64,000 nt of DNA, taken from contig CAVYIJ010000009.1 of the NCBI GenBank assembly GCA_963768575.1, positions 27,899 to 91,898 of the forward strand, written 5' to 3'. The position numbers and the translations under genes are program-made. This document shows positions 1 to 39,910 of this stretch, one piece after another. The DNA is from an uncultured Halobacteria archaeon. GTDB taxonomy: Bacteria; Pseudomonadota; Gammaproteobacteria; UBA9214. Numbering within the stretch: the first letter of the stretch is position 1; each line of letters begins with the position of its first letter. The notes under the pieces are model-generated. The model was not told the origin of the DNA. It worked only from the letters and a program-made list of their open reading frames with translations, and ran no database searches.

Positions 1-688
1 TCAGCAACAACGGCCAGTTCGCCACCATGAAATCCGAGATGCCCATCAGGATCAGGGTTGGCAGTGGCAGTTCCGCACCGAAGCTTTCAAACATGTCAGC
101 GAACGCGGGAATGACGAACAGGCTGATGATGCCGATAGCTACCGCAATGGCGGTCAGCACAAACATCGGATAGCGCAGGGCGGACTTGATTTTCTTGCGG
201 GTCTGTTTTTCCCGGTCCAGGTAAAACGCCAGCTGCTGGAAGATAGCCTCCAGGTGGCCGCTGGCTTCCCCGACCCTGACCATGCTGATGTAGAACATTG
301 AAAAAATGTCCGGGTGCTGACCCAGCGATTCGGACAGGGCGCGACCGGATTCAAGGCTGTCCCCCACGCGCTGCAGTGTCTGTTGCAGGGTCAGGTTGGC
401 CGTGGTGGTTTCAAGCGCGCTGATGGCGCGGAATATCGGTACACCCGCGCGCAGCATGCTGTGCATCTGGCGGCTGAACTGGATCAGGTCATTGGCCTCG
501 ACTTTCTTTTTGAATAACTCGTTGAAGCTGCTCTGCAGGTTGCTTTTCTCGACGTACAGCCGGATATCAACCGGTGTCATGCCGCTATCCATCAGGCGCG
601 CGGCGGCGGCATCCGTACTGCCGGCGTCTATCGTGCCCTCGATGGCATCACCGTGGTCACCGCGTGCCTTGTACCTGAATACCGGCAT
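1..688 (-). CDS. mshG: Type IV pilus/T2SS inner-membrane platform protein (GspF/PilC family), MshG-like; gene 3' end runs off window edge
   Basis: Reverse-strand translation from ATG overlapping mshE stop (ATGA) gives MPVFRYKARGDHGDAIEGTIDAGSTDAAAARLMDSGMTPVDIRLYVEKSNLQ...; typical GspF N-terminal domain; no stop before position 1; gene order M-N-E-G. Confidence 0.8.
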   Translation of the reverse strand, partial: MPVFRYKARGDHGDAIEGTIDAGSTDAAAARLMDSGMTPVDIRLYVEKSNLQSSFNELFKKKVEANDLIQFSRQMHSMLRAGVPIFRAISALETTTANLTLQQTLQRVGDSLESGRALSESLGQHPDIFSMFYISMVRVGEASGHLEAIFQQLAFYLDREKQTRKKIKSALRYPMFVLTAIAVAIGIISLFVIPAFADMFESFGAELPLPTLILMGISDFMVANWPLLL

Positions 689-2397: not shown

Positions 2398-2400
2398 CGT

Positions 2401-3576
2401 TCAATCCTTCCCTGGTAGTTGTCGGTTTGTTTCATTGAGTGACACATCATCAGTCAGTCGTTGCAGCCGGTCGTTAATGTAGTCCTGCAATGTGTTGGCG
2501 AGCGGGAACCGCATTGCCTGCCGGTATGCCGCGCGCGCGTCTCCGCTGTGTCCGGCCTGCTCCTGTGCGATGCCCAGGCCCATCCACCATTCCCCGCGAC
2601 CCGGTGAAATATCAAGCGCGGTGCTGTAATACCCGGCGGCCGCCGCCGGTTCACCATTCCGCTGGTAGAGGCCGGCCAGTAATGCGTGGTATTCAGCATC
2701 CCGCGTGGCGCCGGGCAGTGCAGACTGCAGCCATTCGATGGCCTCGTTATTGCGTCCTTCCGCTACCAGCATGCGTGCCAGCAGGTGTGCATACGGTGTA
2801 TGCAAAGGATGCTGTGCAAGACCGCTGACCAGTATTGATTCGGCATTTGCATTGCGCTGCTGGCGTATCAGCAGGTTGGCGAGCAATAACCTTGCCGCGT
2901 GGTGGTTGCTGTCGCTTGCCAGGATATGTTCCAGTTTATCAATGGCATTCCGGTGATCCCCCGCGGCTGCAGCGGTCGCGGCATTGCGGTAGGCGCGTGC
3001 GAGTTGCGGCGCGGATGTCGGTGCAAGCAGCGTAATCCCGATGTGCGACTGTTCACTGTCGTCACCCTTGCTGTGCAAGGCTGCCGTTTCTATTGTCTCC
3101 GCCGTCTCTGCTGTCTTTGCTGTATCCGCCGTTTTTATCGTCTTTGCCGTGTCTGCGGTTACTGCCGTGTCTATCGTTTCAATCGTCTCCGCCGTGTTCG
3201 CATCGCCCGGGGGGCGTGAATCGCTGTTGCGGCCCGTTTCCCCCGCTGTCGATACCGCCACGACTTCAGGGCCCGCAATGCTGCCGGTGTCGCGCAAGTG
3301 TTTGTTCTCATCGACCGGGATAACTTTTACAGCCAGGGCGGCAGGTGCGACTGACCCGGCTGCATCGATGGCTGCCAGGTAGTCGGCGAACAGGGGTACA
3401 CTGATCGCCATGGCGGACAGCAGGCAGATTCCGGCCGCCGTCCACGCAATGTCCCGGCGTGTGATACCGGCTTCGATGCACCGCAGGCCCGCACCCGGCA
3501 GGGCGGTCATGTTGCCTCCAACCGGTTGCGAACGGCGGGCATCGAGGTCTCTCAGCATGTCGTTGATCAGGCTCAT
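2401..3576 (-). CDS. mshN: TPR-repeat pilus biogenesis protein, MshN-like (start taken at internal Met MSLIND; ORF extends to 3654)
   Basis: 417-aa ORF with TPR-like repeats in C-terminal half, single TM near N-terminus, internal T-A-E/K-T-I low-complexity repeat; position between mshM and mshE as in msh operons. Confidence 0.65.
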   Translation of the reverse strand: MSLINDMLRDLDARRSQPVGGNMTALPGAGLRCIEAGITRRDIAWTAAGICLLSAMAISVPLFADYLAAIDAAGSVAPAALAVKVIPVDENKHLRDTGSIAGPEVVAVSTAGETGRNSDSRPPGDANTAETIETIDTAVTADTAKTIKTADTAKTAETAETIETAALHSKGDDSEQSHIGITLLAPTSAPQLARAYRNAATAAAAGDHRNAIDKLEHILASDSNHHAARLLLANLLIRQQRNANAESILVSGLAQHPLHTPYAHLLARMLVAEGRNNEAIEWLQSALPGATRDAEYHALLAGLYQRNGEPAAAAGYYSTALDISPGRGEWWMGLGIAQEQAGHSGDARAAYRQAMRFPLANTLQDYINDRLQRLTDDVSLNETNRQLPGKD

Positions 3577-3589
3577 GGACAATGTTCGT

Positions 3590-4486
3590 TCAGTGCCACG
3601 CGGCAAACAGTCCCGCACTGGTAGCGGTAAGCAGGCCAAACAGACCGGTTGCAATTGCCAGCCGTTGTCCGCGTGGCTGAGCGTCCTCGGTATCTGCAGC
3701 TGCGTTGCGAATATGTTGTACCTTGATCACGTGGTCGCCACGGCCGTACGCGGACATCAATGCCTTGTGACTCAGCACGTTGATCAGGCGCGGGATGCCA
3801 CGGCTCTTGCGATGCAGCAGTTTCAGTGCGCGCGTCGTGAACAGGGGGCTGCCGCGGTAGCCTGCAACCAGTAACCGGTGATTGACATAGATACCGAGCG
3901 TGTTGCGGTCCAGCGCATTCAGGGTATAGCTGAACAGGATGCGCTGCCGCAGTTGTCGCAGGTCGTGTTGCCGCAGCCGGTGGTCCAGTTCCGGCTGGCC
4001 AAACAGCACCACTTTCAGCAGCTTGTCTCTTTCGGTCTCGAGGTTAGTCAGCAGGCGCAACGCCTCCATGCTGTCATCCGGCATCGACTGTGCCTCGTCC
4101 AGCAGCAGTATTACCTGCTTGCCGCCTGCATTGAGTTCCACCAGCCGCCGCGTTATCCGCGTCATAAGCCGGTGTTGCCCGATATTGTGTGCAAACCCGA
4201 TACCCAGTTCCCCGGCCAGCGCCTTGTGTAAGGCTGGCGGGTCGAGGCACGGATTGGGGATGTAGGCGGTGACGAAATTATCATCCAGTGTGTTGATCAG
4301 TTTCCGGCACAGCAACGTCTTGCCGGTACCGACTTCACCGGTGACCTTGATGAAACCCTCGCCGGACTGCAGTGCCAGTTGCAGGACATTCATCGCCTGC
4401 CGGTGGTTGCCATGGTCAAGAAAGAACCCGGTATCGGGTGTGATGGTGAACGGGGCCTGTTCGAGTCCGAAATGTTCAAGGTACAT
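3590..4486 (-). CDS. mshM: AAA ATPase of ExeA/GspA family, MshM-like
   Basis: 298 aa; MYLEHFGLEQAPF... Walker A GEVGTGKTLLCRKL, Walker B ILLLDEAQ; typical ExeA/MshM N-terminus. Confidence 0.8.
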   Translation of the reverse strand: MYLEHFGLEQAPFTITPDTGFFLDHGNHRQAMNVLQLALQSGEGFIKVTGEVGTGKTLLCRKLINTLDDNFVTAYIPNPCLDPPALHKALAGELGIGFAHNIGQHRLMTRITRRLVELNAGGKQVILLLDEAQSMPDDSMEALRLLTNLETERDKLLKVVLFGQPELDHRLRQHDLRQLRQRILFSYTLNALDRNTLGIYVNHRLLVAGYRGSPLFTTRALKLLHRKSRGIPRLINVLSHKALMSAYGRGDHVIKVQHIRNAAADTEDAQPRGQRLAIATGLFGLLTATSAGLFAAWH

Positions 4487-6258
4487 GGTTGTCTCCGCCG
4501 GTCAGGGTGTCTGTGCCTGTTCGCGCCTGCTGTTCCTCGGATGCGAGGTCCGCGAAACCTGTCTGCCGTTGAGCGCAGCTGTCCGTTCCACTGCTGGTTG
4601 CTGTTGATTACGGTCGGGCGTAACAGGATCACCAGTTCGCTCTTCGAGGCAACCGAGCGGTTGTGCCGGAACATGTCGCCAACGACGGGTACGTCACCCA
4701 GGAACGGCGTGCGGGCTTCTTCGTCGCGAACCGACGTTCTTCATCAGGCCGCCCAGCACCACGATCTGGCCGCTGGCGGCACGGATAACGGTATCGGTCT
4801 CCCGGATCGTGCTGAGCGCGAGCGGGATCGACAGCTGCTCTGTAGATGGAGGTGCTGATGGCCTTGATCTTTTCCGTCACTTCGCTGATAGCCGGATGAA
4901 TATGCAGGATGACCGTAGTTGTCCTCGCTGATTTGCGGGATGACATCCAGTGCCACGCCGGAGAAGAACGGCGTCAGCGTGACATCCACGCTGGTGTTGG
5001 ATACGGTCCGAGCTGACGGTGTCGGTCTCCGTTTCCACGTCGGTGACGAAGAACTCGTCCTGCCCCACCTTGATGACGGCTTTCTGGTTGTTGACCGTGG
5101 AGATGCGCGGGCTGGACAGCACCTGCACATCGCCCTGTGTCTTGATCAGCTCGATCAGGGAATTGAAATCTTTCAGGTTGGCATCGATCGTGAACACGCC
5201 GCCGAGCGCCGTTGTGTCGAAGCCGGTCACCTGGGTGCCCCTGACCAGCGGCACCACGGTGCCTGCGAGTGCCGAGGCGCCGGTGTCGAACACGCTGCCG
5301 CCACCGGAGTGGCCGAATAGAATCGATTTGTCGGGACCGCCGAATTCAATCAATGCATTCCAGTTGATGCCGGACTGGAAGTTGTCATTCAGCATGACCT
5401 CGATGACCTTGGCCTCCAGAATGACCAGCCGGTGTGCCGCATTCTCGATGGTCTTGAGAAATTCATCTACGTTGCGCAATTCTTCCGGCAGGGCATGCAC
5501 GACAATGACGCCGGACTGTGGGTGCACCATCACCTTGCGTCCGCCTTCATCGCCGATGATCATCTGCAGGGACTCTTGCAGGTCTTTCCAGAAGTCCGAC
5601 CTGGACTCGGTGCTGACCACGCTGCCGGAAGAGACGGATGTGCCGCTATTGTCGCTGCCGGCGGTACCGCCGCGGTCTGCTGCCATTTGACTGCCGCCGC
5701 CGAACCGCTGACCTGGCCGGAACTGACGTTGTGCGCGAGCTGCCCTTGCGCACCGCGTGCAGGTAGTCGACGGTAAAGATCTGTGTGCGGATGCGGGCCG
5801 GGTAGACCTGGTAGGTGTTGCCGTTACGACGGTAACGGTAACCGTATACGTCACGCGTGGTTGAAGGCACCTCCTCGATGGTGACATCCTGCAGCGTGAT
5901 GGAAATGGTGCCGGTCACATCCGGGATGAACCACCATGTTCAGCGTGGTGCCCTTGACCAGGCCCATGAAAAATGCCCGCGCACTGCTGTTGTTGACCGA
6001 GATATCGAAGCGCGGCTCGAAGTCCGGCACGATTTCCGGGAGCTGTCATGCGCAGGGTCGGCAGCAGTGCGGCCGCGACTTCGGGCGGCGGCTGCACGGG
6101 TGCTGTTTCCGGCGTGCCGCTTACGCTTTCTTCCAGCGCGGACGTTATTTCCGGCATGTTTCCGGTCGGTCGTCTCGGCATGAGCTGGCAGCCGGTACCG
6201 TGACTGTCGCAAGTAGCAATGTCGACAGGATGAGCAGGCAGTATTTGATGGTGTTCAT
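4477..6258 (-). pseudogene. mshL: Lipoprotein secretin (MshL/PilQ/GspD family) disrupted by at least 5 single-nucleotide frameshifts
   Basis: Secretin sequence is spread over overlapping minus-strand ORFs in all three frames: lipoprotein signal MNTIKYCLLILSTLLLATVTVPAASSC (~6258), [18 protein letters not shown]0-like [13 protein letters not shown]...FTVDYL (5646-5918 ORF), KVMVHPQSGVIVV...VQVLSSPRIST (4877-5887 ORF), C-terminal VLGGLMKNV / FLGDVPVVGDMFRHNRSVASKSELVILLRPTVI (4390-4674 ORF), and S/T-rich tail ending 4 codons into mshM. Confidence 0.75.
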
Positions 6259-6310
6259 GATTGTGTGTCCACGGTTCATGGTTGTTTTTTAACGATGTCC
6301 GGTAGCAGCT

Positions 6311-7259
6311 TCAGCGTGATCTGTCTGTTTGGCGACTGCAGTAGTACACCCGTGTTTGCGTATTTCTGAGCACCGTCGCATTACCGACGGTTTCTCCCTC
6401 GGTCACAGTGGTGGCCGTTGATGACAGCCACCCGGCGTGCGGCGATACCAGCGTGGAGTTCAGTACATAGCTGCCGGCAGTTTGCGGTTGTCGTGTTTCG
6501 TACCGGCCCGTGTCGTATGGGCGGGTAGGGTCGGTCAGTGGCGTTGCGCCGACCTCCAGGGCATTGGCAAGCGCCATGAGACCGAGTGCCATGCAGCAGT
6601 GTTTGTAATCAGCGCCATCAGGGTTTGTCTCCCGGCAGGCCGAGTGTGTAGAGATCCAGCGTGATCCGTGCGTCGGGTGGCTGGTTACCTGGTAGTCAAC
6701 GCTTTCCCAGAAAAACTTCCAGGGCAGGTTTTCCAGTGCCTGCAGGTAGCGGAGGGTTGCAAGGTAACTCCCCTCCAGCTGTAATTGCAGCTGGTAACGA
6801 CCGATGCCCGCCGCGGGCAGGTTTTCTTCGCCCGGCAGTTCAACGCCGGTCAGTGGCTGGCTGCCGGCATCGACTTCCAGCAGGTTCAGGCCCTGCTCCT
6901 GTTCCAGCACCTGCTCCAGTACCTTGACCGCATGTGCGGGTGCGAGCAGTCCACCTATCCTGCTCCTGTATCTGTTTATCGAGCATCGCCAGTTGTGCGA
7001 GCATTTCATCATGCAATGAGGTGGTCCCGCCTCCGGAGGGGCCGGACAACAGGCCGCTACGCTCGCGCAACAGCTCGAGTTTCAGTTCCAGGTCGGTGAT
7101 CGCCTGATGGCTTGCCTTCTGTTGCTTCATCACCGGCTGGATCGCAAGCGTATCAGCCACGAAAAACAGCAAGGCAAGGCAGGCAACAAGCAACATGACC
7201 CGCTGGCGCAGTTCCATGGCATCAACCCTGTTGGCGAGCTGCTGTATATGCTCATGCAT
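6311..7259 (-). pseudogene. mshJ: PilO-like MshJ (frameshift near 6955) running without clear stop into an MshK-like small lipoprotein segment
   Basis: ORF 6840-7259 MHEHIQQLANRVDAMELRQRVMLLVACLALLFF (TM + coiled coil) loses sense after ...LDKQIQEQDRW; frame +1 (ORF 6311-7012) continues GGLLAPAHAVKVLEQVLEQEQGLNLLEVDAGSQ...GIGRYQLQLQLEGSYLATLRYLQALENLPWKFFWESVDYQV (PilO C-terminal-like), then MALGLMALANALEVGATPLTDPTRP (MshK-like signal peptide + DPTRP). Confidence 0.55.
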
Positions 7260-7261
7260 AA

Positions 7262-7855
7262 TTACAGCGCCTCCGGAGTACTTTTCAGTACGAAATTGAC
7301 GTGTGGATTGGAGGGGTCGTCACGCGAGAGATGCACCGATCCCTGGTGCAGCGCAATAAACCGGGGTTCCTCGGGCATGTCCTGCAGGTAGCGGGGCACC
7401 AGTGTGGGGTCCAGCGTCGAGCCCCTGATCTCGGTCTCGCCCTCCTCGGTGAGCACGATGCCGGTCAGCCAGAGGCCGGGTATTGATCGCCTCGCAAGTG
7501 TCTCGAAGAACTCAGCGAAGCCGTTACTGTCTCTGATCGTCAGCCGCGAAAAGCGCTCGAGCAATGTCCGGCGTTCATCTATTGTTGACTGTAACCGCTC
7601 AGCCTCGCTCTTCACGCTGGCCCTGGCAAGGTCGCCGGTGTTTTCCAGAATGCCAAGCCGTGCCTCCAGCTGCTGGTACTGGTTGGACAAGGACACGGCT
7701 GTCGAGTCCAGGCCGCCCAGCGTCCATCTCGCCTGCAGGAAAAAGACCAGCAGCAGCACGGCCGCAACAACAAGGACCTGCAGCAGCGTTAGCGCAGACA
7801 GCACCTTGCGTTGCCGACGGAAGACGGGCTGGTACAAATTGATTTGCTGGTACAT
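7262..7855 (-). CDS. mshI: PilN-like MshI (MshI2-type; start taken at MYQQINLYQ, ORF extends to 7954)
   Basis: MYQQINLYQPVFRRQRKVLSALTLLQVLVVAAVLLLVFF.. single TM + coiled coil, typical MshI/PilN N-terminus; first gene after the promoter region. Confidence 0.65.
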   Translation of the reverse strand: MYQQINLYQPVFRRQRKVLSALTLLQVLVVAAVLLLVFFLQARWTLGGLDSTAVSLSNQYQQLEARLGILENTGDLARASVKSEAERLQSTIDERRTLLERFSRLTIRDSNGFAEFFETLARRSIPGLWLTGIVLTEEGETEIRGSTLDPTLVPRYLQDMPEEPRFIALHQGSVHLSRDDPSNPHVNFVLKSTPEAL

Positions 7856-7981
7856 AGCGTCCCTGTTGTGTTTACCCTTCCCTGGTAATCGACGCGCTCG
7901 CCGCAGCTGCGCACAAACACGTCTGTTCCACCCGGTGCCGTTACCTGGCAGCACCCGTTGACATGGATGTTGGAAAATGAG

Positions 7982-7998
7982 TGCAAATTCCCTGCCAA
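7982..7998 (-). promoter_or_regulatory. Putative sigma-54 (RpoN) promoter for msh operon
   Basis: Minus-strand reading TTGGCAGGGAATTTGCA = TGGCA-N6-TTGCA with GG-N10-GC spacing exactly as the -24/-12 consensus TGGCACG-N4-TTGCW; ~120 nt upstream of mshI start. Confidence 0.55.
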
Positions 7999-8003
7999 TT
8001 GTT

Positions 8004-8016
8004 TAACTAACTGATA
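8004..8016 (-). promoter_or_regulatory. 13-mer TATCAGTTAGTTA (minus-strand reading), IHF-consensus-like; identical copy at 14267-14279
   Basis: Exact 13-nt identity between the two upstream regions; matches WATCARNNNNTTR; located 6 nt upstream of the sigma-54 -24 element. Confidence 0.45.
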
Positions 8017-8175
8017 TGCAATATAATAAATTCCATTGCCCAGGCGGGTGTTGACGGTTTATTGTCGTTTCGCGGAATTATGCGCCATTATTCCGGCGCA
8101 CGTGACGGGTCAGCGGTCGCAGCTGTGCGCGGCGGTCGTGTGAGACAGGATTACGGGTAGCGGGCGTGCGGCGGA

Positions 8176-8607
8176 TCAGCGCCGGCGCCGGCGAGACAGC
8201 TGGTAGCGGGTGATATCTCCGACCAGTTGTGCGCAGGGAATAGCTTCGATACCGGCAAAACGGGTTTTCGCGGCTTCGACCAGTGATGCGATGTCAGCGA
8301 CCGTGCCGTCCGGATTATCGTTAAGCATGCGCTGCAGACCGAGCAGGCCGCCAAACTGGATTTTCGCCAGTACCCCGTGCGGGACCTGCAGCAGGTCATC
8401 CTCGACACCAAATTCGGGTAATGCAACGGCTTTCATCCGCTCGAACAGGCGGACACAGTTGGCATGTGTCGTGGCGGACCGGCAGGCGAATTCCGCGCCG
8501 CCACGACGAATAATCTGTTCTGCATGCGGGCAGGCAAAGTCATTTTTGGCCAGCGTGGCGCTGAAGGGACAGATCAGATCACTCATAAATCGGCATTTCC
8601 CGAACAA
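8176..8607 (-). CDS. Hypothetical protein with Cys-rich N-terminus (CPFS...CPH...C..C)
   Basis: 143-aa ORF MSDLICPFSATLAKNDFACPHAEQIIRRGGAEFACRSATTHANCV; no confident family assignment. Confidence 0.4.
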   Translation of the reverse strand: MFGKCRFMSDLICPFSATLAKNDFACPHAEQIIRRGGAEFACRSATTHANCVRLFERMKAVALPEFGVEDDLLQVPHGVLAKIQFGGLLGLQRMLNDNPDGTVADIASLVEAAKTRFAGIEAIPCAQLVGDITRYQLSRRRRR

Positions 8608-8719
8608 TTCACCCGGTTACTGGAATTCAGGCATACAATAATTTGCAAGTGCAGGATTGTACCCCGGGGTTGATTGATTAAAAATTGAACGGGGGAAATA
8701 CCCGCAAGGTGGTGTCTAT

Positions 8720-9070
8720 ATGATTGATAAACCGGCAATAGCAACAGCAATACCCAGGCGGCGTTACCGCCTGGGTGAATTTACCGTCACCGTGCTGGGT
8801 GATGTCGAGAGCAAGGACGGCAGGAACTACCGGCATATTGCGGCTATTATCAAAGGGCAGGACCCGGAGCCGGGCATGTACATCACCGCGGAGCAGGGTG
8901 GTGCCGGACGGGACGATGCCCTCGAAATGCGTATCATCATGCAAGACGGTGCGGAGGTGCTCGATAGCTCGGAACGCTGGCGTGATGTCGATGTCTTCGC
9001 GGAAGAAGTCATCCGTATCGTCTCGTTGATGCTGAAACTCACGGACGAGACACCTTACCGGCTGTTGTAG
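8720..9070 (+). CDS. Hypothetical protein
   Basis: 116-aa ORF; 10-nt gap to next ORF with AGGAG RBS suggests two-gene operon. Confidence 0.4.
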   Translation: MIDKPAIATAIPRRRYRLGEFTVTVLGDVESKDGRNYRHIAAIIKGQDPEPGMYITAEQGGAGRDDALEMRIIMQDGAEVLDSSERWRDVDVFAEEVIRIVSLMLKLTDETPYRLL

Positions 9071-9080
9071 GAGTCGAACA

Positions 9081-9359
9081 ATGAAAATCACAAGAATCTT
9101 TCTGTTGTTGTCGCTGGCAGGCTGCCTGTCGGTTGCGGGTTATGCACAGGCATTCTGTTTTTCGAAAGGCAACAACCAGGGCCGAACGTATAATTACTAT
9201 TATTATCCGCTGCCTGCAGTCGGTTTTGTGCAGCAGAACTACTATGCATATCCGTATGATCCTGTGCAAATGGACAGGCGGTACGGGTACGAAGAGGCGG
9301 TTACTCCATCCAGTCTGCCGGATATCGATCGCCACCGGGACGTATGGAGTTTGAAGTAG
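9081..9359 (+). CDS. Small secreted Tyr-rich protein (signal peptide + YNYYYYPLP...NYYAYPYDP)
   Basis: 92 aa; MKITRIFLLLSLAGCLSVAGYAQA signal peptide; AGGAG RBS 8 nt upstream. Confidence 0.5.
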   Translation: MKITRIFLLLSLAGCLSVAGYAQAFCFSKGNNQGRTYNYYYYPLPAVGFVQQNYYAYPYDPVQMDRRYGYEEAVTPSSLPDIDRHRDVWSLK

Positions 9360-9436
9360 CGGGAGGGGTGGCCGGATTTTCCTGAATATTTCCGGTATTG
9401 CAGGTACGTGCGCGATGATGTCAGGACAGTGCCTGC

Positions 9437-11587
9437 CTATGGCTTTACCAGGTTGATGGTCCCGGGTGTTTCCTGGTTCTGCAGCATTTTGAGAATCTCG
9501 TCCGCGGATACAGGTTTGCTGAACAGGTAACCCTGGACGACGTGGCATCCATGTTGCCTGAAGAAGTTCAGCTGCTTGACGTTTTCGACGCCTTCCACTA
9601 CCAGTGAAAGGTTCAGGCTGTGCGCCATTGCTATGATGGTCTGGGCTATCAGCGTCCCTTCCTTGCTGTCCGGTATTTCGCTGACGAATGAGCGGTCGAT
9701 TTTAACAGTGTCGATAGGCAGCTTGCGCAGGTACCCGAGCGATGAATAACCGGTGCCGAAATCGTCCATGGCAATACTCATCCCCATTTTCTTGAGTTTT
9801 TCCAGGGTGATGATTGCCGAATCGATATTACGCATGGCGACATTCTCGGTAACTTCCAGCTCGGCCCTGTCCGCGCCTATCCCGGCTTCAGCCAGTGCAT
9901 TTTCCACGATTTTTTCGAAACCCGGCCTGGAGAGTTGTGAAGACGACAGGTTGACGGCCATGGTTAGATCATCGAAGCCGGCATTGTGCCACTCACGCAG
10001 TTGTCTGAAAGCCGTGCGCAGTACCCATTCGCCGATCGGGATGATAAGTCCGCTCTCTTCGGCGATGGGAATAAACTCGAGCGGGCTGACATGCCCCATG
10101 GCCGGATGCTTCCAGCGCAGCAATGCCTCCACGCCTATGATGACATTTCGCGTTATGTCTATTTTAGGCTGGTAGACCAGGTACAGCTGCTCCTTTTCGA
10201 GCGCTGTTCTCAGGTTCGTCTCCAGTGCCAGTTTTTTGCGCGATCCGGCATTCATTTCGGCGGTGTAGAAGACCATCTTGTTGCGCCCGATCTCTTTTGC
10301 GCGATACATGCTGATATCCGCATGCTTGACGAGTGTATCCGCGTCAGAACCGTCGAATGGATATATGCTTATGCCAACACTGGTGGTGATATGCAGTTCG
10401 TGACCATGACAGGAAATGGGCCCCGTCAGGGACTTGATGATCTTGGCGCCGATCTTGCCGGCATCCGAGGCACTGTTGATGTTCGGCAGAAGGACCATGA
10501 ATTCGTCGCCGCCAAAGCGTGCAACAGTGTCGCCTTCACGTACGCAATTTGTCAGTCGACGCGAGATCACCCTCAGTAACTGGTCGCCGATGCCATGGCC
10601 AAGCGAGTCGTTAATGATCTTGAAGCGATCGAGATCGAGAAACAACAATGCCAGCATGCTTTCCTGGCGACAGGCCTGTGCAAGTCCGGACTTGATGCGA
10701 TCATTCAGCAGGCTCCGGTTTGGCAGCCCGGTTAGAGCGTCATGGTGCGCATGGTACTCCATGCGCTTTGCCACGGCTTCCGCCTGTTCTTTCGACGATT
10801 CGAGCTGTGAATTGGCAACCTCCAGTTCGCGGGTGCGCATGGTGACCCTGTTTTCCAGCTCTGCCTGGTATGTTTTCAGCTGGCTGTCGCGTGTCTGGAT
10901 CTCGTCCAGCATGGTGTTGAAGTCAACGATCAGGTTGCCGAGTTCATCCTGGCCGCGCCCTGCAACGCGCAGGGCGAAGTTCTTTTCGGTGCTGATGCGG
11001 CGGGCGATTGCTGACAGCCCGAGTAACGGATCGGTAATAATGCGCTGCAGTTGCGCACTGAGTATGAATGCGACCAGCAGCGAGGCGGCCAGTACAATTG
11101 CAACAATGCCGAGAAACCATGCCAGTCGGTCATGGATCGCATTTATGTCTGATCGCAGGTAGACCAGGCCGATGAGGTCGTCTTCGTAAATGATCGGACT
11201 GAAGGCCTCTGCATACTTGTCGGTGAATTTCAATTCCTGCTTGTGTGGTCCCGGTCGAGGTAGCTCACCGTAGAATCCTTCCCGCCGGTAGGTGGCGAAC
11301 ACGCTGCCGTCCTTGTGATACAGGACTCCGGCCTTCACATATTTTTGCGACTTCAGGAATCCAAGTGTCTCCAGGGCGGCTTCGGGGTCGCCGAACAGCA
11401 TGGCGGCGGTGCTGTTGGCGGCAATCATGGACGCCAGGGTTGTGAGGTTGTCACCGACGGTTTTCTGCGCGTACAACCTGTCCGATGTTATGAAGGCAAC
11501 ACTGGCGAGCAGCAGCGATGCCATGGTTATGGTCATGCTGATAAGCATGAGTTTGTGGCGTACTGAAATATTCTTTAACGGCTTCAT
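9437..11587 (-). CDS. Membrane sensor with periplasmic CHASE8-like domain, HAMP, GGDEF and EAL domains (YfiN/TpbB-like with extra EAL)
   Basis: 716 aa; TM1 residues ~12-35, periplasmic segment LASMIAANSTAAMLFGDPEAALETLGFLKSQ...VLYHKDGSVFATY, TM2, HAMP, coiled coil, RFGGDEF, EAL motifs EALLRW / DDFGTGYSSL / KIDRSFV. Confidence 0.85.
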   Translation of the reverse strand: MKPLKNISVRHKLMLISMTITMASLLLASVAFITSDRLYAQKTVGDNLTTLASMIAANSTAAMLFGDPEAALETLGFLKSQKYVKAGVLYHKDGSVFATYRREGFYGELPRPGPHKQELKFTDKYAEAFSPIIYEDDLIGLVYLRSDINAIHDRLAWFLGIVAIVLAASLLVAFILSAQLQRIITDPLLGLSAIARRISTEKNFALRVAGRGQDELGNLIVDFNTMLDEIQTRDSQLKTYQAELENRVTMRTRELEVANSQLESSKEQAEAVAKRMEYHAHHDALTGLPNRSLLNDRIKSGLAQACRQESMLALLFLDLDRFKIINDSLGHGIGDQLLRVISRRLTNCVREGDTVARFGGDEFMVLLPNINSASDAGKIGAKIIKSLTGPISCHGHELHITTSVGISIYPFDGSDADTLVKHADISMYRAKEIGRNKMVFYTAEMNAGSRKKLALETNLRTALEKEQLYLVYQPKIDITRNVIIGVEALLRWKHPAMGHVSPLEFIPIAEESGLIIPIGEWVLRTAFRQLREWHNAGFDDLTMAVNLSSSQLSRPGFEKIVENALAEAGIGADRAELEVTENVAMRNIDSAIITLEKLKKMGMSIAMDDFGTGYSSLGYLRKLPIDTVKIDRSFVSEIPDSKEGTLIAQTIIAMAHSLNLSLVVEGVENVKQLNFFRQHGCHVVQGYLFSKPVSADEILKMLQNQETPGTINLVKP

Positions 11588-11594
11588 TGCCCGC

Positions 11595-12182
11595 CTATTG
11601 TTTTGATTTTACGATGTTGGCGAGGGACAACAGCTTCGAGCTGATGGTGATACCGGCATAACCGGCCGCCTCGGTGTTGATATCGAACCGGACCTTGTTG
11701 TCGATCAACTTGAACCCGATAATGCCCCCATGTTGTGTAAATCCGGATATCTCACTGACAGTCAGTATGGGCAGGTCACGCAATTGATATAAAATATCGT
11801 CAAGCCTCGCTTCAAACGACTTGTCGATATAGGCGAGGTTGCATTGTTTTATGAATACCAGGCTGTCGTAGAACTCCGCAACCTCTATGTCATAGTGTTC
11901 TACAACCAGCACATTGTTGTGGACTGTCCGCCCGATAAGAGAGTCAATCAGGCTGCCAAACGGATTTTTGCCGATGATGCACAGCTTGAAGTTATCCTCG
12001 ATCGGTGCCGGCCAGCTTGAAAATCGGGAAAAGTTGTACAGGAAAGCGGTTTTTACACGGTATTCAGTCGACGAATTATCTGCAGCCGGCACGCTGGCGG
12101 GTGCCAGCCATAGCATGATCAGCGCCAGTCCAAGAACCGGGCGCCTCACAGACTGCACCAGTCGTTGAAGCGGCCTGAGCAT
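11595..12182 (-). CDS. YfiR-like periplasmic protein (DUF4154 family)
   Basis: 195 aa; signal peptide then YRVKTAFLYNFSRFSSWP motif characteristic of YfiR/DUF4154; start ATG overlaps TBDR stop (ATGA). Confidence 0.7.
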   Translation of the reverse strand: MLRPLQRLVQSVRRPVLGLALIMLWLAPASVPAADNSSTEYRVKTAFLYNFSRFSSWPAPIEDNFKLCIIGKNPFGSLIDSLIGRTVHNNVLVVEHYDIEVAEFYDSLVFIKQCNLAYIDKSFEARLDDILYQLRDLPILTVSEISGFTQHGGIIGFKLIDNKVRFDINTEAAGYAGITISSKLLSLANIVKSKQ

Positions 12183-14242
12183 TACTGAAAGGACCAGCTC
12201 ACCTTGCCATATATGCTGCGCTCGATCTCGGTCGGGTAGGACACGATGAAGTCCGGATTGAACTCGCGGTGTGTGCTGTCGAACAGGTTCTGGCCGATCA
12301 GCGACAGGTCAAGACCGGGCTTCGGCGTCCAGCCCAGTCGCGCGTCAAACGCCACGTAGTCTTCGATCTTCGTGGGAGACACGGGATTGGTATCGGTCAG
12401 GCTGCCAACGTAGCGCACACCGGCATCCATCTCGAGGTTGTTGCCCAGGTCTGCCGACACCCACAGGTTGGCTGTGTGCTCCGGTGAGGCATTCTCTGCA
12501 AGCTGTGAAAAGGGATCCGCGCTGGCGTTGATGAGCTTCAGGTCCATATCCAGGAAAGTGTAATTGGCATTGACAGCCAGCCATGGTCTGGCGGTCCAGC
12601 GCACATCGATCTCGATGCCTTGTGTGGTGCCTTCCATGTTGTTCGCAAACAGGCCCGTTGGACCCGCAAGCTCAACGGTTCTCAGGTCCTCGTAGTCGTT
12701 GTAATAAGCGGCCACGTCAACCGTAACCGAACCCGCGATTGCGCGGCGGAAGCCGAGTTCATAGGCAATGAGGTCCTCGGACTCATACGCGTCACTACCC
12801 AGGACGGTGGCGCCACCAAATGCCGGCAATACCAGGCTGACATCGTGCTCGCCACGGGCCGGAGTGCGCACGGCGCGTGAAATGCTGCCCCAGACCGTAT
12901 TGCCCACCTCCGTCACCCAGGCCGCGCGGATATTGGGCTGGAACTCGAAGCCAGTGAAATCATTCTCTTCGAACTTGCTGCCCACCGTTACCTTCAGACG
13001 GTCGCTCACGCTAATCTCGTCCTGGATGAAGCCAGAGAACAGGTCGACACTGCGGGACAGGGGTGTCAGGGTGAAAATCGGAGTGGGAACGGTGTCATCA
13101 TCGATGTTGCGGTAATTCAGCCCCCAGATGATGTCGTTTTTCGCGTTCAGGGCAATGTTATGCTGGAAATCGAGATCGATCGTCTGCCGGTCCTCGTACA
13201 ACGCAAGACTTTCGCGGCTCACATGATCGAAATACCCCTGCAGCGTGAAACTCGAGTCCGGGCTGAGAGTGCGTGTCCAGCGGTACAGCAGGTTGCCGCC
13301 TTTGTTATCGGCGGTGTCAACCGTCGGTGGTCCCGCAACGGCAATTTGTACGTTCTGGCCGCTGTTGCCCTCGTAGTAGTCACCCTGCAGGGTGTGCAAG
13401 TCCTTGCCCTTGTCCCAATCCGTGCGAAAGCCCGCCTGGGCCATATCTGCATCGTCATGCGCGGTGCTCACACCAGGGAAGGGGATGGGCTCGCCGGTAT
13501 CCTTTTCATTGCCCATGGCATAGACGCGATAATTGACGCCGGACTTGCTGACGCCGCCATGGCGGAGGTTGAGCATTCCTTCCAGTTCATTACCTGCGGC
13601 AGCGGTCACCAGCGTGCCCTGGGTGTCGGCGGAGGACTTGGTAATGATATTGATGACACCGTTGACGGCATTCGCGCCCCACAGTGTGCCGCCCGGTCCG
13701 CGAATAACCTCGATGCGCTCGACGTCTTCCAGCATGACCGTATTGGCATCCCAATAGACACCGGCAAACAGCGGGGTATAGACGGAACGACCGTCAATCA
13801 GCACCAGCAGCTTGTTGGCGAAGCGGCTGTTGAAACCACGCGAGGTGATGGCCCACTTGTTGGCATCGATGTGCGCGACCTGCAGGCCGGGGACCCGGCG
13901 CAGGGCATCGGGGATATTGGTTACACCCCAACGACGCAGATCTTCGTTCGTGATGACGAACACCGCGGCAGCGGCCTCTGACTTTTTCGTCTTCTTTTTT
14001 GATACCGAGGTAATCTCGACATCCATCAGGGCTTCGAGGCTCATGCCCATGAAGTCGTCGGAAACCTGTGCCGCGGGCACCATGACCGGCATGCAGGCCA
14101 GTGCGCACAAAAGCGCTGACAGCCAGCGCGTGGCGTGCTGCCCGGATTGCGTGTTGCGCTTCCCCCAAAATGGCAGGATGCGTGCGGGTTTCCCCTCCCG
14201 GTTCGGACCCCTGCAAGGGCTTGAGTGTGTCCCGTGATGCAT
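12182..14242 (-). CDS. TonB-dependent outer-membrane receptor (plug + 22-strand barrel); true start codon uncertain
   Basis: 686-aa ORF; plug DVEITSVSKKK...VITNEDLRRWGVTNIPDALRRVPGL...IDGRSVYTPLF..RIEVIRGPGGTLWGANAVNGVINIITK; C-terminal aromatic ...YGKVSWSFQ; signal peptide appears only after residue ~35 so the annotated ATG may be too far upstream. Confidence 0.85.
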   Translation of the reverse strand: MHHGTHSSPCRGPNREGKPARILPFWGKRNTQSGQHATRWLSALLCALACMPVMVPAAQVSDDFMGMSLEALMDVEITSVSKKKTKKSEAAAAVFVITNEDLRRWGVTNIPDALRRVPGLQVAHIDANKWAITSRGFNSRFANKLLVLIDGRSVYTPLFAGVYWDANTVMLEDVERIEVIRGPGGTLWGANAVNGVINIITKSSADTQGTLVTAAAGNELEGMLNLRHGGVSKSGVNYRVYAMGNEKDTGEPIPFPGVSTAHDDADMAQAGFRTDWDKGKDLHTLQGDYYEGNSGQNVQIAVAGPPTVDTADNKGGNLLYRWTRTLSPDSSFTLQGYFDHVSRESLALYEDRQTIDLDFQHNIALNAKNDIIWGLNYRNIDDDTVPTPIFTLTPLSRSVDLFSGFIQDEISVSDRLKVTVGSKFEENDFTGFEFQPNIRAAWVTEVGNTVWGSISRAVRTPARGEHDVSLVLPAFGGATVLGSDAYESEDLIAYELGFRRAIAGSVTVDVAAYYNDYEDLRTVELAGPTGLFANNMEGTTQGIEIDVRWTARPWLAVNANYTFLDMDLKLINASADPFSQLAENASPEHTANLWVSADLGNNLEMDAGVRYVGSLTDTNPVSPTKIEDYVAFDARLGWTPKPGLDLSLIGQNLFDSTHREFNPDFIVSYPTEIERSIYGKVSWSFQ

Positions 14243-14266
14243 TGGATATACTCCTGGTAGCCTATA

Positions 14267-14279
14267 TAACTAACTGATA
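14267..14279 (-). promoter_or_regulatory. Second copy of 13-mer TATCAGTTAGTTA (IHF-like) just upstream of TBDR operon
   Basis: Exact identity with 8004-8016; adjacent TTGCCAATT also shared with msh upstream region. Confidence 0.45.
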
Positions 14280-14465
14280 GAAATGAATTAGTTGCCAATT
14301 ATCCCCGTGAGTTCCGCGCATACCCGTGCGGCAGAGATCCCCCTTTCAGGGAAGGCTATCGGCGTGGCTGGATCCATACTTAAGCACCTGAATGGTGCGA
14401 ATTACCGGTCGCCGGGCAGGGTCCGGTCGACGGTCAAGAGCCCGCGGGCGGGGCCGGACGGGTGG

Positions 14466-14762
14466 TTAGTCTTTGTCCTTGTCGCGCTTGCCGGGCAGTT
14501 TGAGCGAGACTACGACGGAGGACTGCGGTTCATCGACAAAGCGCGGGCGTGCATCCATCGAGCGGCCGGCGGCCTTGTTGAGTTCGGTCTCTCGCGCAGT
14601 GATCAGTGACAGGCACTTGCGAATGCCATCGACGGTTTGATCGGACAATGGATGACGGTAGCCGGGCTTGGTATAGGTGTCCTTGGCAACATCGGTCAGG
14701 ACTCGCTTCATCACCCGCAGGATCCTTTCTTCCTTGCTGAATTCGGTTTTCTTGCTCATCAT
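14466..14762 (-). CDS. Hypothetical small basic protein
   Basis: 98-aa ORF MMSKKTEFSKEERILRVMKRVLTDVAK...; no family recognised. Confidence 0.4.
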   Translation of the reverse strand: MMSKKTEFSKEERILRVMKRVLTDVAKDTYTKPGYRHPLSDQTVDGIRKCLSLITARETELNKAAGRSMDARPRFVDEPQSSVVVSLKLPGKRDKDKD

Positions 14763-14824
14763 CCGGCCTGTCCGTCAACGTGACAGGCCTATTGTGACAC
14801 AGATGAATAGCAGGGGCAGGCAGC

Positions 14825-15451
14825 TCACTCCTTTATATATACATATTGCCAGTGTCCGCCTGTCAGCGTCTGCAAGGCCTGCAGCAGGGCCGGGCCGGGT
14901 ATGGCCTCGGACGGGTATATGCCACTGATTTCAACGAAGACTTGACCGAAGCCGGCGTTCTTGTGCAGGCTCCAGTCGGGCAGTTCACCGTGATAGCCGC
15001 AGGATGTGCATGACCACTGCAACGCTGCGGGATTCTCCCGCCATTGCCGTAGATGTGTCTCCCAGTCCGCGACCGGCTCGCTGCATTGCGGACAGCGCGG
15101 CGCACGGGCTTGCGGGTCGCCGCGGAAGTGCAGGATATCCGTGCACAACAGCCTGACGAAACAAAAACTGCCGTTTGCAAGCGCGGCGGCCAGTGTGGCG
15201 TTATCGGCGGGCGGTTCCAGTTCGATATTGGGCGCGCAGCCCAGGAAGCTGACCAGTTGCAGGAAGTCGTCGCCGGTCGGGTAAAATTCATTGCCATCGC
15301 ACGCGCCCGGCGCACCGATCAGGCCGATTGCCTGCAGACCGGCAGCCAGCTTGCCGCAATCGTCGAGCGTGGCATGTGGATCTGCCGGCAGCAGGATGAG
15401 TTTATGGGCGGGCACGGCTGTTCCTTGCGTGGATTCGTGGGGGTGGATCAA
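14825..15451 (-). CDS. Hypothetical protein with two CxxC pairs (zinc-ribbon-like)
   Basis: 208 aa; CPQCSEPVADW ... CTSCGYHG. Confidence 0.4.
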   Translation of the reverse strand: MIHPHESTQGTAVPAHKLILLPADPHATLDDCGKLAAGLQAIGLIGAPGACDGNEFYPTGDDFLQLVSFLGCAPNIELEPPADNATLAAALANGSFCFVRLLCTDILHFRGDPQARAPRCPQCSEPVADWETHLRQWRENPAALQWSCTSCGYHGELPDWSLHKNAGFGQVFVEISGIYPSEAIPGPALLQALQTLTGGHWQYVYIKE

Positions 15452-31365: not shown

Positions 31366-35613
<4,248 letters not shown>

Positions 35614-35692
35614 AACAGTAGCCAGTAACCGGTAGCCAGGCAAGCCTCGCAACCGTAACCGGCAACTCGATACTCCATTTACAGGAGAGACG

Positions 35693-39910
<4,218 letters not shown>

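Follow-up and report, generated by a model that had tools for sequence, protein, structure and literature searches.

Within the window, as we call the whole 64-kb stretch of DNA analyzed here, a gene for a TonB-dependent receptor (TBDR) stands directly ahead of genes for a YfiR-like periplasmic protein and an inner-membrane sensor with GGDEF and EAL domains, raising the question of whether an outer-membrane receptor might serve as the input to a cyclic di-GMP (c-di-GMP) switch. The three minus-strand genes described in the initial annotation were recovered as open reading frames at precisely the coordinates in Table 1, the peptides it had quoted (YRVKTAFLYNFSRFSSWP, EALLRW, and DDFGTGYSSL) were each located in the translations, and Pfam searches upheld all of its domain calls for the TBDR, the 195-aa protein, and the sensor. 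The three genes probably form one transcription unit. The sensor gene begins after a 7-nt gap, as had been reported (TAG gcgggca ATG); at the TBDR/DUF4154 junction, a shared ATGA had been described, whereas the sequence reads cagTAATGctc, with TAA and ATG sharing 1 nt. The TBDR start codon is preceded at 8 nt by a Shine-Dalgarno sequence (AGGAG), and both elements align among orthologues. No OmpA/YfiB-like gene was found in the operon, consistent with the earlier claim, and a tblastn search with E. coli YfiB extended this absence to the entire window (no homologue; best E = 0.74).

Table 1. Coordinates of the three-gene locus, its domains and motifs, and its candidate promoter within the window
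Feature	Position	Strand	Basis
TBDR, TOL_0244 family, 686 aa	12182..14242	-	Pfam, NCBIfam
TBDR Plug domain, residues 87-196	13655..13984	-	Pfam PF07715, 4.1e-22
Extended TonB-box region SLEALMDVEITSVSKK, TBDR residues 68-83	13994..14041	-	Conserved pattern
YfiR-like protein (DUF4154), periplasmic, 195 aa	11595..12182	-	Pfam PF13689, 6.6e-37; AlphaFold model; Foldseek
Inner-membrane sensor, 716 aa: TM, CHASE8, TM, HAMP, coiled linker, GGDEF, EAL	9437..11587	-	Pfam, NCBIfam
CHASE8 periplasmic domain, residues 42-144	11156..11464	-	Pfam PF17152, 3.4e-15
AAMLF motif, sensor residues 61-65	11393-11407	-	Aligned to E. coli DgcN AAVVF
HAMP, residues 182-231	10895..11044	-	Pfam PF00672, 1.3e-07
GGDEF domain, residues 280-437	10277..10750	-	Pfam, 7e-51; DLDRFKIIND, I-site REGD, GGDEF, KEIGRN
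EAL domain, residues 458-692	9512..10216	-	Pfam, 2.5e-74
Sigma-28 (FliA)-type promoter candidate, TAAG-N15-GCCGATAG	14356..14382	-	Conserved in orthologous upstream regions

The TBDR combines its Plug with a β-barrel domain (TonB_dep_Rec_b-barrel, 9.4e-34) and scored 676.8 bits against NCBIfam model NF053590 (cutoff, 645); the nearest solved plug domains were those of CirA and BtuB. An STN N-terminal signaling domain was absent by both Pfam and structure comparison. The N-terminal segment DLxxxSLExLMxxEVTSVSKK was conserved unusually strongly across phyla: among 56 cassette TBDRs of diverse phyla, 80% or more keep the pattern S.E.LM....TS.

The 195-aa protein, assigned by Pfam to the "YfiR/HmsC-like" family DUF4154, has the YfiR fold. 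Its AlphaFold model had a mean pLDDT of 80.4 (>84 across most of the folded core, residues 41 to 190, and ~61 at residues 101 to 110), and its best Foldseek matches were Pseudomonas aeruginosa YfiR structures (4ZHU and related entries; target-normalized TM score of up to 0.78). A profile of the subfamily matched YfiR at 1.5e-11. Identity to P. aeruginosa YfiR was only ~17%, pairwise BLAST against E. coli YfiR detected nothing, and the protein fell under the NCBIfam cutoffs for both YfiR-type models, reaching 100 bits (cutoff, 125) with that of the TOL_0243 family. Two cysteines, C68 and C114, were invariant throughout the subfamily and align with C71 and C110 of YfiR.

The sensor's input module is homologous to YfiN: the first 250 aa are collinear with E. 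coli YfiN/DgcN (27% identity; E = 6e-17), with DgcN aligning along its full length, and residues 8 to 231 exceeded the cutoff of NF053592, "sensor histidine kinase, YfiR-like protein-associated" (208.1 bits; cutoff, 194). The AAMLF motif, conserved among orthologues as AA(I/L/M)(I/L)F, corresponds to the AAVVF proposed as the YfiR-binding site (Malone et al. 2012, PMC3375315). The EAL domain had been called intact from EALLRW and DDFGTGYSSL, and this held for its further motifs (N, ELEVTE, KIDRSF, EGVE, and QGYLFSKP) as well as for the catalytic motifs of GGDEF; the former were kept among gammaproteobacterial orthologues and the latter in 12 to 15 orthologues. Both catalytic sites look competent.

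Taken by its parts, the locus resembles the YfiBNR and HmsCDE systems of P. aeruginosa, E. coli, and Yersinia, in which a periplasmic protein of the DUF4154/YfiR fold is likewise encoded beside a CHASE8-HAMP-GGDEF inner-membrane sensor; collinearity with YfiN, the AAxxF patch, the first YfiR cysteine pair, and a predicted c-di-GMP output are all shared. In contrast to those systems, the outer-membrane component here is a TBDR and not the OmpA-like lipoprotein YfiB, the order is outer-membrane protein, YfiR-like protein, and sensor as opposed to yfiR-yfiN-yfiB, the YfiR-like protein lacks the second disulfide (C145-C152, essential in P. aeruginosa YfiR), and the sensor has an intact EAL domain as well.

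A survey of gene neighborhoods bore out the association between TBDR and YfiR-like genes. Where enough upstream sequence was available, a TBDR lay directly 5' of the YfiR-like gene on the same strand at 67 of 77 loci (87%) and was divergently oriented at 3 more; directly 3', a CHASE8-HAMP sensor was found at 70 of the 75 loci with enough downstream sequence. Reciprocally, the trio was present on each of 5 contigs for which TBDR similarity had been the sole selection criterion. Because this gene order recurs in both sets, the arrangement is far beyond chance, and its evolutionary conservation is the strongest argument that the TBDR association is functional. Cassette loci spanned about ten phyla (Gamma-, Beta-, and Alphaproteobacteria, Acidobacteriota, Desulfobacterota, Nitrospirota, Verrucomicrobiota, Planctomycetota, and others), with junctions mostly of -13 to +30 nt and overlapping stop and start codons at many loci. 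Sensor outputs were mostly hybrid histidine kinases, with GGDEF-EAL in a gammaproteobacterial clade that includes the window. Fused GGDEF(-EAL) sensors numbered 15 among related loci, and in kinase-type loci 19 of 27 downstream genes encoded receiver domains, 8 of them with GGDEF and 3 with EAL, suggesting c-di-GMP as a recurrent output of the cassette.

Alignment of 11 orthologous loci revealed a sole conserved island, TAAG-N15-GCCGATAG, in upstream intergenic regions that were otherwise unalignable. In the window it lies ~115 nt 5' of the TBDR start codon and resembles the sigma-28 consensus used here, TAAAGTTT-N11-GCCGATAA (PMC4866697). The pattern matched once within the window, where 0.49 matches are expected, so that the motif alone is not significant there; the exact pattern recurred at the homologous position in L001 to L004, L006, L007, L009, L011, L081, L083, and L084 and, with a spacer of 14 to 16 nt permitted, also in L005, L014, L085, L086, L087, and L089. 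The operon is probably driven by a sigma-28-type promoter, and from this candidate motif we infer FliA dependence, which suggests expression in motile cells.

The initial annotation had presented the circuit as not known to be characterized experimentally. We found no functional study of the trio in the literature, but the novelty was overstated: NCBIfam release 20 (2026) covers all three proteins with the linked models NF053590 ("TOL_0244 family" TBDR), NF053591 ("TOL_0243 family YfiR-like"), and NF053592 ("HK, YfiR-like-associated"), an independent recognition of the trio by its curators. The three-gene cassette is the same and the window's TBDR and sensor input score above the curated cutoffs; that family is defined by annotation alone, and the window differs from it in having a GGDEF-EAL output, not a histidine kinase. 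The names derive from the tags TOL_0244 and TOL_0243 of Thalassolituus oleivorans MIL-1, in which proteomics recorded a 7-fold rise of TOL_0244 on the n-C28 alkane, interpreted as alkane uptake (PMC6304351); this is the single published expression datum for the TOL_0244 family. Malone et al. (2012, PMC3375315) had likewise described YfiR-YfiN[PAS] core modules that are widespread, lack YfiB, and keep the interface residues, the output domain being exchanged for GGDEF-EAL, HPT, histidine kinase, or MCP; the present findings agree with that description. As that paper's text and available supplements do not mention TonB receptors, a conserved outer-membrane partner adds to this picture; the conserved sigma-28-type promoter ahead of the cassette is a new observation.

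What, then, might the receptor do? The best explanation, held tentatively and at somewhat less than even confidence, is a three-compartment cassette in which ligand import through the TBDR, as dedicated input, operates a c-di-GMP switch. The TBDR would reside in the outer membrane, a secreted YfiR-fold protein in the periplasm, and the YfiN-type sensor in the inner membrane; by homology with YfiR-YfiN, the YfiR-like protein would bind CHASE8 via the AAxxF patch and lock the sensor in one signaling state. Powered by TonB, the TBDR would import a ligand into the periplasm and, since the cassette lacks an inner-membrane transporter, no further. There the ligand may alter the YfiR-like/CHASE8 interaction and shift the enzyme between c-di-GMP synthesis and degradation, and the flagellar-type promoter would place this switch in motile cells, in which it might select between swimming and settling. 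We infer the YfiR-like/CHASE8 binding, the TBDR as input, import over docking, and the direction of the switch. Counting against this reading are the low identity of the YfiR-like protein to P. aeruginosa YfiR, its missing C145-C152 disulfide, its sub-cutoff scores with both YfiR-type models, and the lack of significance of the promoter motif taken by itself in a single window.

At the output, and compatible with any input model, the enzyme might instead be essentially a phosphodiesterase whose activity, as with E. coli PdeH, holds c-di-GMP down while cells are motile, leaving the GGDEF domain only a regulatory or GTP-sensing role. We consider this unlikely, if still a serious contender. E. 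coli yhjH/pdeH is FliA dependent (PMC4866697), in keeping with the sigma-28-type promoter, and the closest full-length NCBIfam similarities of the sensor are phosphodiesterases (DibA, PRK10060, and DosP), every score being below cutoff. However, the orthologues keep the catalytic residues of GGDEF and its RxxD I-site without exception, a conservation that a regulatory-only domain would not need, and in L005 and L008 it is the EAL motifs that deviate (EALILW and KIGQSF), with GGDEF intact.

At the input, the TBDR could substitute for YfiB by direct relay, the model of the initial annotation: ligand or TonB would expose a periplasmic surface, the extended N-terminal TonB-box segment being one example, that captures the YfiR-like protein and frees the sensor. 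We judge this improbable. The TBDR does fill the outer-membrane slot beside homologues of YfiR and YfiN, and the unusual conservation of its N-terminal segment and the overlapping codons would fit such contact, as would one locus (L053) whose order, TBDR, TBDR, YfiR-like, TBDR, YfiR-like, sensor, resembles unit duplication of receptor/YfiR-like pairs. Yet ligand import into the periplasm accounts for the data at least as well, and is favored because the plug, barrel, and TonB box are normal and a FecA/STN-type signaling extension is lacking, because the YfiR fold resembles one half of a periplasmic binding protein (PMC4655355), and because vitamin B6 and L-Trp are both ligands of P. aeruginosa YfiR (PMC4887326). 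Import is also favored by loci that suit cognate docking less well, namely, two with three TBDRs per one YfiR-like protein (L027 and L054) and the ~9% with a YfiR-like/sensor pair but no TBDR. Pairwise distances correlate weakly between TBDR and YfiR-like protein (rho, ~0.3), compared with 0.5 between YfiR-like protein and sensor, which counts against direct relay and import alike.

Least probable is that the TBDR is a co-expressed or co-regulated nutrient transporter unlinked to signaling and the YfiR-like/sensor pair is autonomous: the invariant cysteines aligning with the redox-sensitive C71-C110 of YfiR, the commonness of YfiB-less YfiR-YfiN pairs (Malone et al. 2012), and the TBDR-less loci, among them L009, which shares the window's synteny and retains promoter, YfiR-like gene, and sensor at a site that has lost the TBDR, all agree with it, but a TBDR adjacent in fixed order and strand at 87% of loci in about ten phyla while output domains vary freely, the linked NCBIfam families, and cassettes (the 5 TBDR-selected contigs included) in which no inner-membrane uptake system was found to make the TBDR nutritionally useful argue against it. 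Periplasmic redox sensing via C68-C114, as proposed for YfiR and HmsC, is one example of how an autonomous pair could work.

Unlike FecA-FecR-FecI transducers and Bacteroides SusC/hybrid two-component systems, the window locus has no STN domain, anti-sigma factor, or ECF sigma factor, and its periplasmic and inner-membrane partners are a YfiR-fold protein and a CHASE8 sensor. In LuxP-LuxQ and TorT-TorS, a soluble binding-protein-like periplasmic protein modulates a membrane sensor, the role that the YfiR-like protein may play here; it differs in being a single α/β half-domain with putative ligand binding, encoded in an operon with a dedicated putative outer-membrane importer. LuxP/LuxQ was among the weak Foldseek fold matches of the YfiR-like model.

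The TBDR-YfiR-like-sensor operon reported in the initial annotation was confirmed. The coordinates it had given for the three minus-strand ORFs matched exactly, all of its domain calls were upheld by a Pfam profile search, and the gap between the YfiR-like and sensor genes was 7 nt, as claimed. The junction between the genes for the TonB-dependent receptor (TBDR) and the YfiR-like protein, described there as a shared ATGA, was incorrect; it reads cagTAATGctc, a 1-base TAA/ATG overlap. The stated lack of YfiB, the OmpA-like lipoprotein of the known YfiBNR system, also held: no OmpA/Pal-like ORF lies in the operon, and a tblastn search of the 64-kb window with E. coli YfiB recovered no homologue (best E = 0.74). 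No intrinsic terminator was found after the sensor gene, whose 96-nt tail folds like shuffled sequences (z = 0.19).

Features of the operon and its surroundings in the window
Feature	Position (nt)	Strand	Description
MSHA-type pilus cluster	688-7954	-	Downstream of operon; secretin, AAA protein, TPR protein, and MshE ATPase with MshEN at end
116-aa ORF	8720-9070	+	Convergent with sensor gene; conserved in 11 loci; no Pfam match
92-aa ORF	9081-9359	+	Convergent with sensor gene; signal-peptide/lipoprotein-like N-terminus MKITRIFLLLSLAGC...; no Pfam match
Sensor	9437-11587	-	716 aa; CHASE8 3.4e-15, HAMP 1.3e-07, GGDEF 7e-51, EAL 2.5e-74 (Pfam)
YfiR-like protein	11595-12182	-	195 aa; DUF4154 "YfiR/HmsC-like" (Pfam PF13689), 6.6e-37
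TBDR	12182-14242	-	686 aa; Plug 4.1e-22, TonB-dependent barrel 9.4e-34 (Pfam)
Candidate sigma-28/FliA-type promoter motif	14356-14382	-	TAAG-N15-GCCGATAG, full TAAGTATGGATCCAGCCACGCCGATAG; upstream of TBDR, outside the span initially annotated
98-aa ORF	14466-14762	-	Just upstream of operon; no significant Pfam match
208-aa ORF	14825-15451	-	Just upstream of operon; weak DUF3716 match below gathering cutoff

There is good support for a YfiR-YfiN-type pairing of the YfiR-like protein with the CHASE8 sensor and for the TBDR as a conserved third member. By pairwise comparison, the YfiR-like protein had no detectable similarity to E. coli YfiR (BLASTP) and marginal similarity to P. aeruginosa YfiR (phmmer, E = 0.02), and it scored under the cutoff of the NCBIfam equivalog "regulatory sequestration protein YfiR" (NF053586; 36.6 bits, cutoff 85); a profile built from its own subfamily reached YfiR at 1.5e-11. 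Its exact sequence was not on record, and a 99%-identical protein from L081, a metagenome contig 97.6% identical in DNA, served as the stand-in. The AlphaFold model had a mean pLDDT of 80.4, with values >84 over most of the core (residues 41-190) and a fall to ~61 at residues 101-110. Its best 15 PDB matches were all YfiR structures (target-normalised TM 0.68-0.78, 15-19% identity), with 4ZHU, 4YN9, and 4YN7 the best among them (target-normalised TM 0.71-0.78). Two cysteines, C68 and C114, were invariant across the subfamily and aligned with C71 and C110 of YfiR; in P. aeruginosa, this pair is redox sensitive and a second pair, C145-C152, is essential for folding (PMC4655355). In the alignment, no subfamily member had cysteines at the C145/C152 positions. 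A signal-peptide-like segment was recognized by eye at the N-terminus. The "substrate-binding protein" 5Z6V of Rhodothermus marinus was a fold neighbor, yet we do not count it as a member because the subfamily profile does not match it. Three relatives of 340-380 aa (P0121, P0122, and P0125) carry two tandem DUF4154 domains.

The sensor is of the YfiN type in its order of transmembrane segment, periplasmic PAS-like CHASE8 domain, transmembrane segment, HAMP, and GGDEF. Its residues 1-250 and the N-terminal 245 residues of E. coli DgcN/YfiN aligned collinearly (27% identity, E = 6e-17), and full-length DgcN aligned over sensor residues 6-407 (28.7% identity, E = 2.8e-37). The patch AAMLF (sensor residues 61-65), kept in orthologues as AA(I/L/M)(I/L)F, aligned on AAVVF of DgcN, which in the YfiN periplasmic domain is the proposed hydrophobic YfiR-binding surface (Malone 2012, PMC3375315). 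All GGDEF catalytic motifs were present (DLDRFKIIND for DxD..ND, the RxxD I-site, GGDEF, and KxxGRN), as were all standard motifs of the EAL domain, which had been called intact from the outset (EALxR, N, ExxE, DDFGTGYSSL for DDFGxGYSS, K, EGVE, and QG). Nearly all of these motifs were conserved among gammaproteobacterial orthologues at 55 to 80% identity. Judged by its motifs, the protein is a candidate bifunctional GGDEF-EAL enzyme, in which both catalytic sites look intact. The locus thus resembles YfiBNR in its YfiR-fold DUF4154 protein, its YfiN-type sensor, and the YfiR-binding patch, but differs in lacking both YfiB and the C145-C152 pair and in the extra EAL domain of its sensor.

The TBDR is compact, with a plug that begins ~25 residues past the signal peptide and is nearest to those of CirA and BtuB among solved structures. 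FecA-type transducers combine an STN domain with an adjacent anti-sigma/ECF sigma pair; in contrast, Pfam found Plug and barrel alone on the window TBDR, with no STN-type N-terminal signalling domain, and no sigma or anti-sigma factor genes were found among the operon neighbors. An AGGAG Shine-Dalgarno sequence lies 8 nt before the ATG; this pair is aligned in orthologues, which makes it probable that the long N-terminal region ahead of the hydrophobic signal segment is real. Conservation is strong around the TonB box (SLEALMDVEITSVSKK), with S.E.LM....TS present in at least 80% of the 56 TBDRs compared, which come from cassettes of many phyla. A possible Fur box in the AT-rich stretch just before the ATG was rejected, with ~10/19 matches by eye and no conservation in orthologues.

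Searching one genome per species with a YfiR-like profile gave 543 relatives. The best 80 loci were retained, and their genes were annotated using the domains of the window proteins together with profiles derived from the matches. Among these best 80 of 543, 77 loci extended far enough upstream for the neighborhood survey; in 67 of them a same-strand TBDR gene immediately precedes the YfiR-like gene (in 3 it is divergent and in 7 absent). A CHASE8(+HAMP) protein is encoded directly downstream in 70/75. The cassette loci span Gamma-, Beta-, and Alphaproteobacteria, Acidobacteriota, Desulfobacterota, Nitrospirota, Verrucomicrobiota, Planctomycetota, Latescibacterota, and others. GGDEF sensors (n = 15), all but one with EAL as well (14/15; the exception is L016), occurred mostly in the window's gammaproteobacterial clade. 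The 48 other sensors were hybrid histidine kinases, with HisKA in 45, HATPase_c in 46, a receiver in 31, and Hpt in 15. Even in kinase cassettes, c-di-GMP is a recurrent output, since the genes immediately downstream (n = 27) encode receiver (19/27), GGDEF (8/27), EAL (3/27), and HD-type (1/27) domains. The YfiR-like family as a whole comprises 28,450 clusters at 50% identity with E <= 0.001, and 7,916 with E <= 1e-30.

Gene content varied at individual loci. L053 has the order TBDR, TBDR, YfiR-like, TBDR, YfiR-like, sensor; L027 and L054 each have three TBDRs per one YfiR-like gene; L056 has two of each; and L017 has two YfiR-like genes without a TBDR. The gammaproteobacterial orthologue L009 (5166-8625) retains the window's flanking genes and the sigma-28 motif and has lost the TBDR, so the YfiR-like/sensor pair can persist without a receptor. 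In a reciprocal check based on the collection's own gene calls and Pfam matches, 5/5 contigs chosen by TBDR similarity (54 to 59% identity) and size carried the TBDR, DUF4154, and CHASE8/HAMP/GGDEF/EAL genes; this says little beyond the clade because all five belong to the same syntenic gammaproteobacterial clade. Mirror-tree Spearman correlations, from distances near saturation, were 0.28 for TBDR/YfiR-like, 0.50 for YfiR-like/sensor, and 0.45 for TBDR/sensor. L002 (JABDRC010000064.1), which carries the closest relative of the operon, is labelled a "Halobacteria archaeon" MAG, yet its synteny is fully gammaproteobacterial; mis-binning of the contig is the probable reason.

Annotators have recognized the cassette as a unit: NCBIfam release 20 (June 2026) includes a set of three linked, consecutively numbered models whose names derive from Thalassolituus oleivorans locus tags. 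The window TBDR matched NF053590, "TOL_0244 family TonB-dependent receptor" (676.8 bits, cutoff 645; residues 65-685, profile 3-604 of 604). NF053591, "TOL_0243 family YfiR-like periplasmic protein," was the top-scoring NCBIfam family for the YfiR-like protein, though below cutoff (100.2 bits, cutoff 125; full profile 1-150), and the sensor matched NF053592, "sensor histidine kinase, YfiR-like protein-associated" (208.1 bits, cutoff 194; residues 8-231). Whereas the output of the NCBIfam cassette is a histidine kinase, Pfam found neither HisKA nor HATPase_c in the window sensor; the locus is a GGDEF-EAL-output variant of the recognized TBDR/YfiR-like/CHASE8-sensor cassette. We found one paper naming these locus tags, a proteomic study of T. 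oleivorans in which TOL_0244 was up seven-fold on n-C28 and was proposed as an alkane importer, with OmpS of Alcanivorax dieselolei as a proposed relative and no mention of the genes neighboring TOL_0244 (PMC6304351). YfiB-less YfiR-YfiN[PAS] cores had been described as widespread, with outputs swapped to GGDEF-EAL, HPT, kinase, and MCP; TonB receptors are unmentioned in the text and supplements examined of that work (Malone 2012, PMC3375315). These NCBIfam models and Malone 2012 came earlier and reduce the novelty of the locus. The initial interpretation, a ligand-gated version of the YfiBNR circuit, stands in part: the cassette is real, conserved, and YfiNR derived, and our literature search for YfiR, YfiN, DUF4154, or CHASE8 with TonB receptors found no functional study, but the relay from receptor to sensor is a proposed mechanism, and the claim of novelty is cut back by the existing family names and the YfiB-less cores.

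How the receptor might act on the pair can be read in several ways. We infer, tentatively, that it feeds the YfiR-like/sensor pair by import-coupled sensing, the reading we favor while placing it somewhat below an even chance: the TBDR would import a molecule that is sensed by the pair rather than consumed. In carrying a TonB box but no signalling domain, the TBDR resembles an ordinary transporter. An inner-membrane uptake system is missing from the cassette, which suggests that whatever is imported is there to be sensed. The YfiR fold is half of a periplasmic-binding-protein fold (PMC4655355), consistent with the fold matches obtained here, and vitamin B6 and L-Trp are ligands of P. aeruginosa YfiR (PMC4887326). 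That the number of receptors per YfiR-like protein varies, with a minority of loci having none, also agrees with import. The initial annotation proposed a relay from the TBDR through the YfiR-like protein, which can be read as direct docking of the two; the very conserved N-terminal segment of the TBDR, the duplicated receptor/YfiR-like units of L053, and the analogy with YfiB fit such docking, which we consider rather unlikely. A further reading, in which C68-C114 lets the pair sense redox conditions in the periplasm and the TBDR is just co-expressed, is improbable given a TBDR adjacency fixed across ~10 phyla.

Because most of the surveyed YfiR-like relatives (67/77 loci) sit behind a TBDR, the ancestral input of the YfiR-YfiN core is suggested to be something imported or reported by an outer-membrane receptor. 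With nearly even confidence, the cassette may represent a third mode of TonB-dependent signalling across the envelope, one that works by its own mechanism and is very widespread. On this view it would run from a TBDR through a YfiR-fold adaptor to interchangeable outputs, and canonical YfiBNR would be a derived offshoot where YfiB replaced the receptor. Such a mode would stand beside the FecA-type transducers and the SusC-linked sensors of Bacteroides, its adaptor gating c-di-GMP enzymes in the window and hybrid kinases elsewhere, and would offer a new route by which external cues reach c-di-GMP or two-component signalling in Gram-negative bacteria. YfiR-YfiN serves as a paradigm of c-di-GMP control from the periplasm. 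The window by itself is of modest value, as one ordinary member of a cassette already named by annotators; as a class, the cassette is interesting and testable, with Sphingobium nicotianae H33 (locus L050, GGDEF-EAL output) and Thalassolituus oleivorans MIL-1 (TOL_0244 to TOL_0242) among its cultured carriers.

Upstream of the TBDR, TAAG-N15-GCCGATAG can be read from its sequence as a candidate flagellar-class promoter, the FliA/sigma-28 consensus being TAAAGTTT-N11-GCCGATAA, equivalent to TAAA-N15-GCCGATAA (PMC4866697). A single match in the window against 0.49 expected by chance has little meaning alone. When the intergenic region was aligned over 11 orthologous loci, (C)TTAAG...N...GCCGATAG was the sole alignable island. 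The exact pattern was found at the homologous place in L001-L004, L006, L007, L009, L011, L081, L083, and L084, and, with spacers of 14 to 16 nt allowed, also in L005, L014, L085, L086, L087, and L089; in all, the motif keeps its position in ~17 other loci if L081 (97.6% identical to the window), L083, and L084 (the last two near-identical to each other) are each counted. By our estimate, a 400-nt spacer would contain the pattern by chance with a probability of ~2e-4 per locus. L009, which lacks the receptor, has the motif immediately before its YfiR-like gene. A promoter scan found no sigma-70 promoter on the minus strand upstream of the operon, and no flagellar genes occur within the 64-kb window. 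In an acidobacterial cassette (L051, 3803-3829), a sigma-28-like CAAAG...GCCGATAG lies ~80 nt upstream of the TBDR ORF, which hints that such a promoter is perhaps not confined to the gammaproteobacterial clade. The E. coli c-di-GMP phosphodiesterase gene yhjH/pdeH is FliA dependent (PMC4866697), and a PdeH-like role, with the sensor acting mainly as a phosphodiesterase in motile cells, is possible. The promoter candidate would give the cassette a physiological setting, namely the decision whether to swim or to settle.

The window belongs to the core chromosome. Two ORFs at 31366-39910, of 1415 and 1405 aa, match rpoB/rpoC in size, and the operon is part of a syntenic block, found in a large clade of uncultured Gammaproteobacteria, of a metallo-beta-lactamase-fold gene, two small ORFs, the trio, and small convergent ORFs. 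The MshEN domain binds c-di-GMP, and the sensor might act locally on the MSHA-type pilus cluster downstream. A functional link between the two was set aside, since the adjacency is common to L002, L083, and L084 only and not to other gammaproteobacterial loci; we record it as a side note. Within the cluster, positions 5660-6970 differ from L081 by 41 indels and ~165 mismatches in 1.3 kb, compared with 27 mismatches and no indel over 7000-15319. In the window, the secretin and mshJ-like genes are broken up among three reading frames, whereas L081 and L083 have them intact; the disruption reflects either pseudogenisation or a local artefact of assembly or strain mixing. On the other side of the operon, the 98-aa and 208-aa ORFs were conserved in ten gammaproteobacterial loci (E = 1e-40 to 1e-82).
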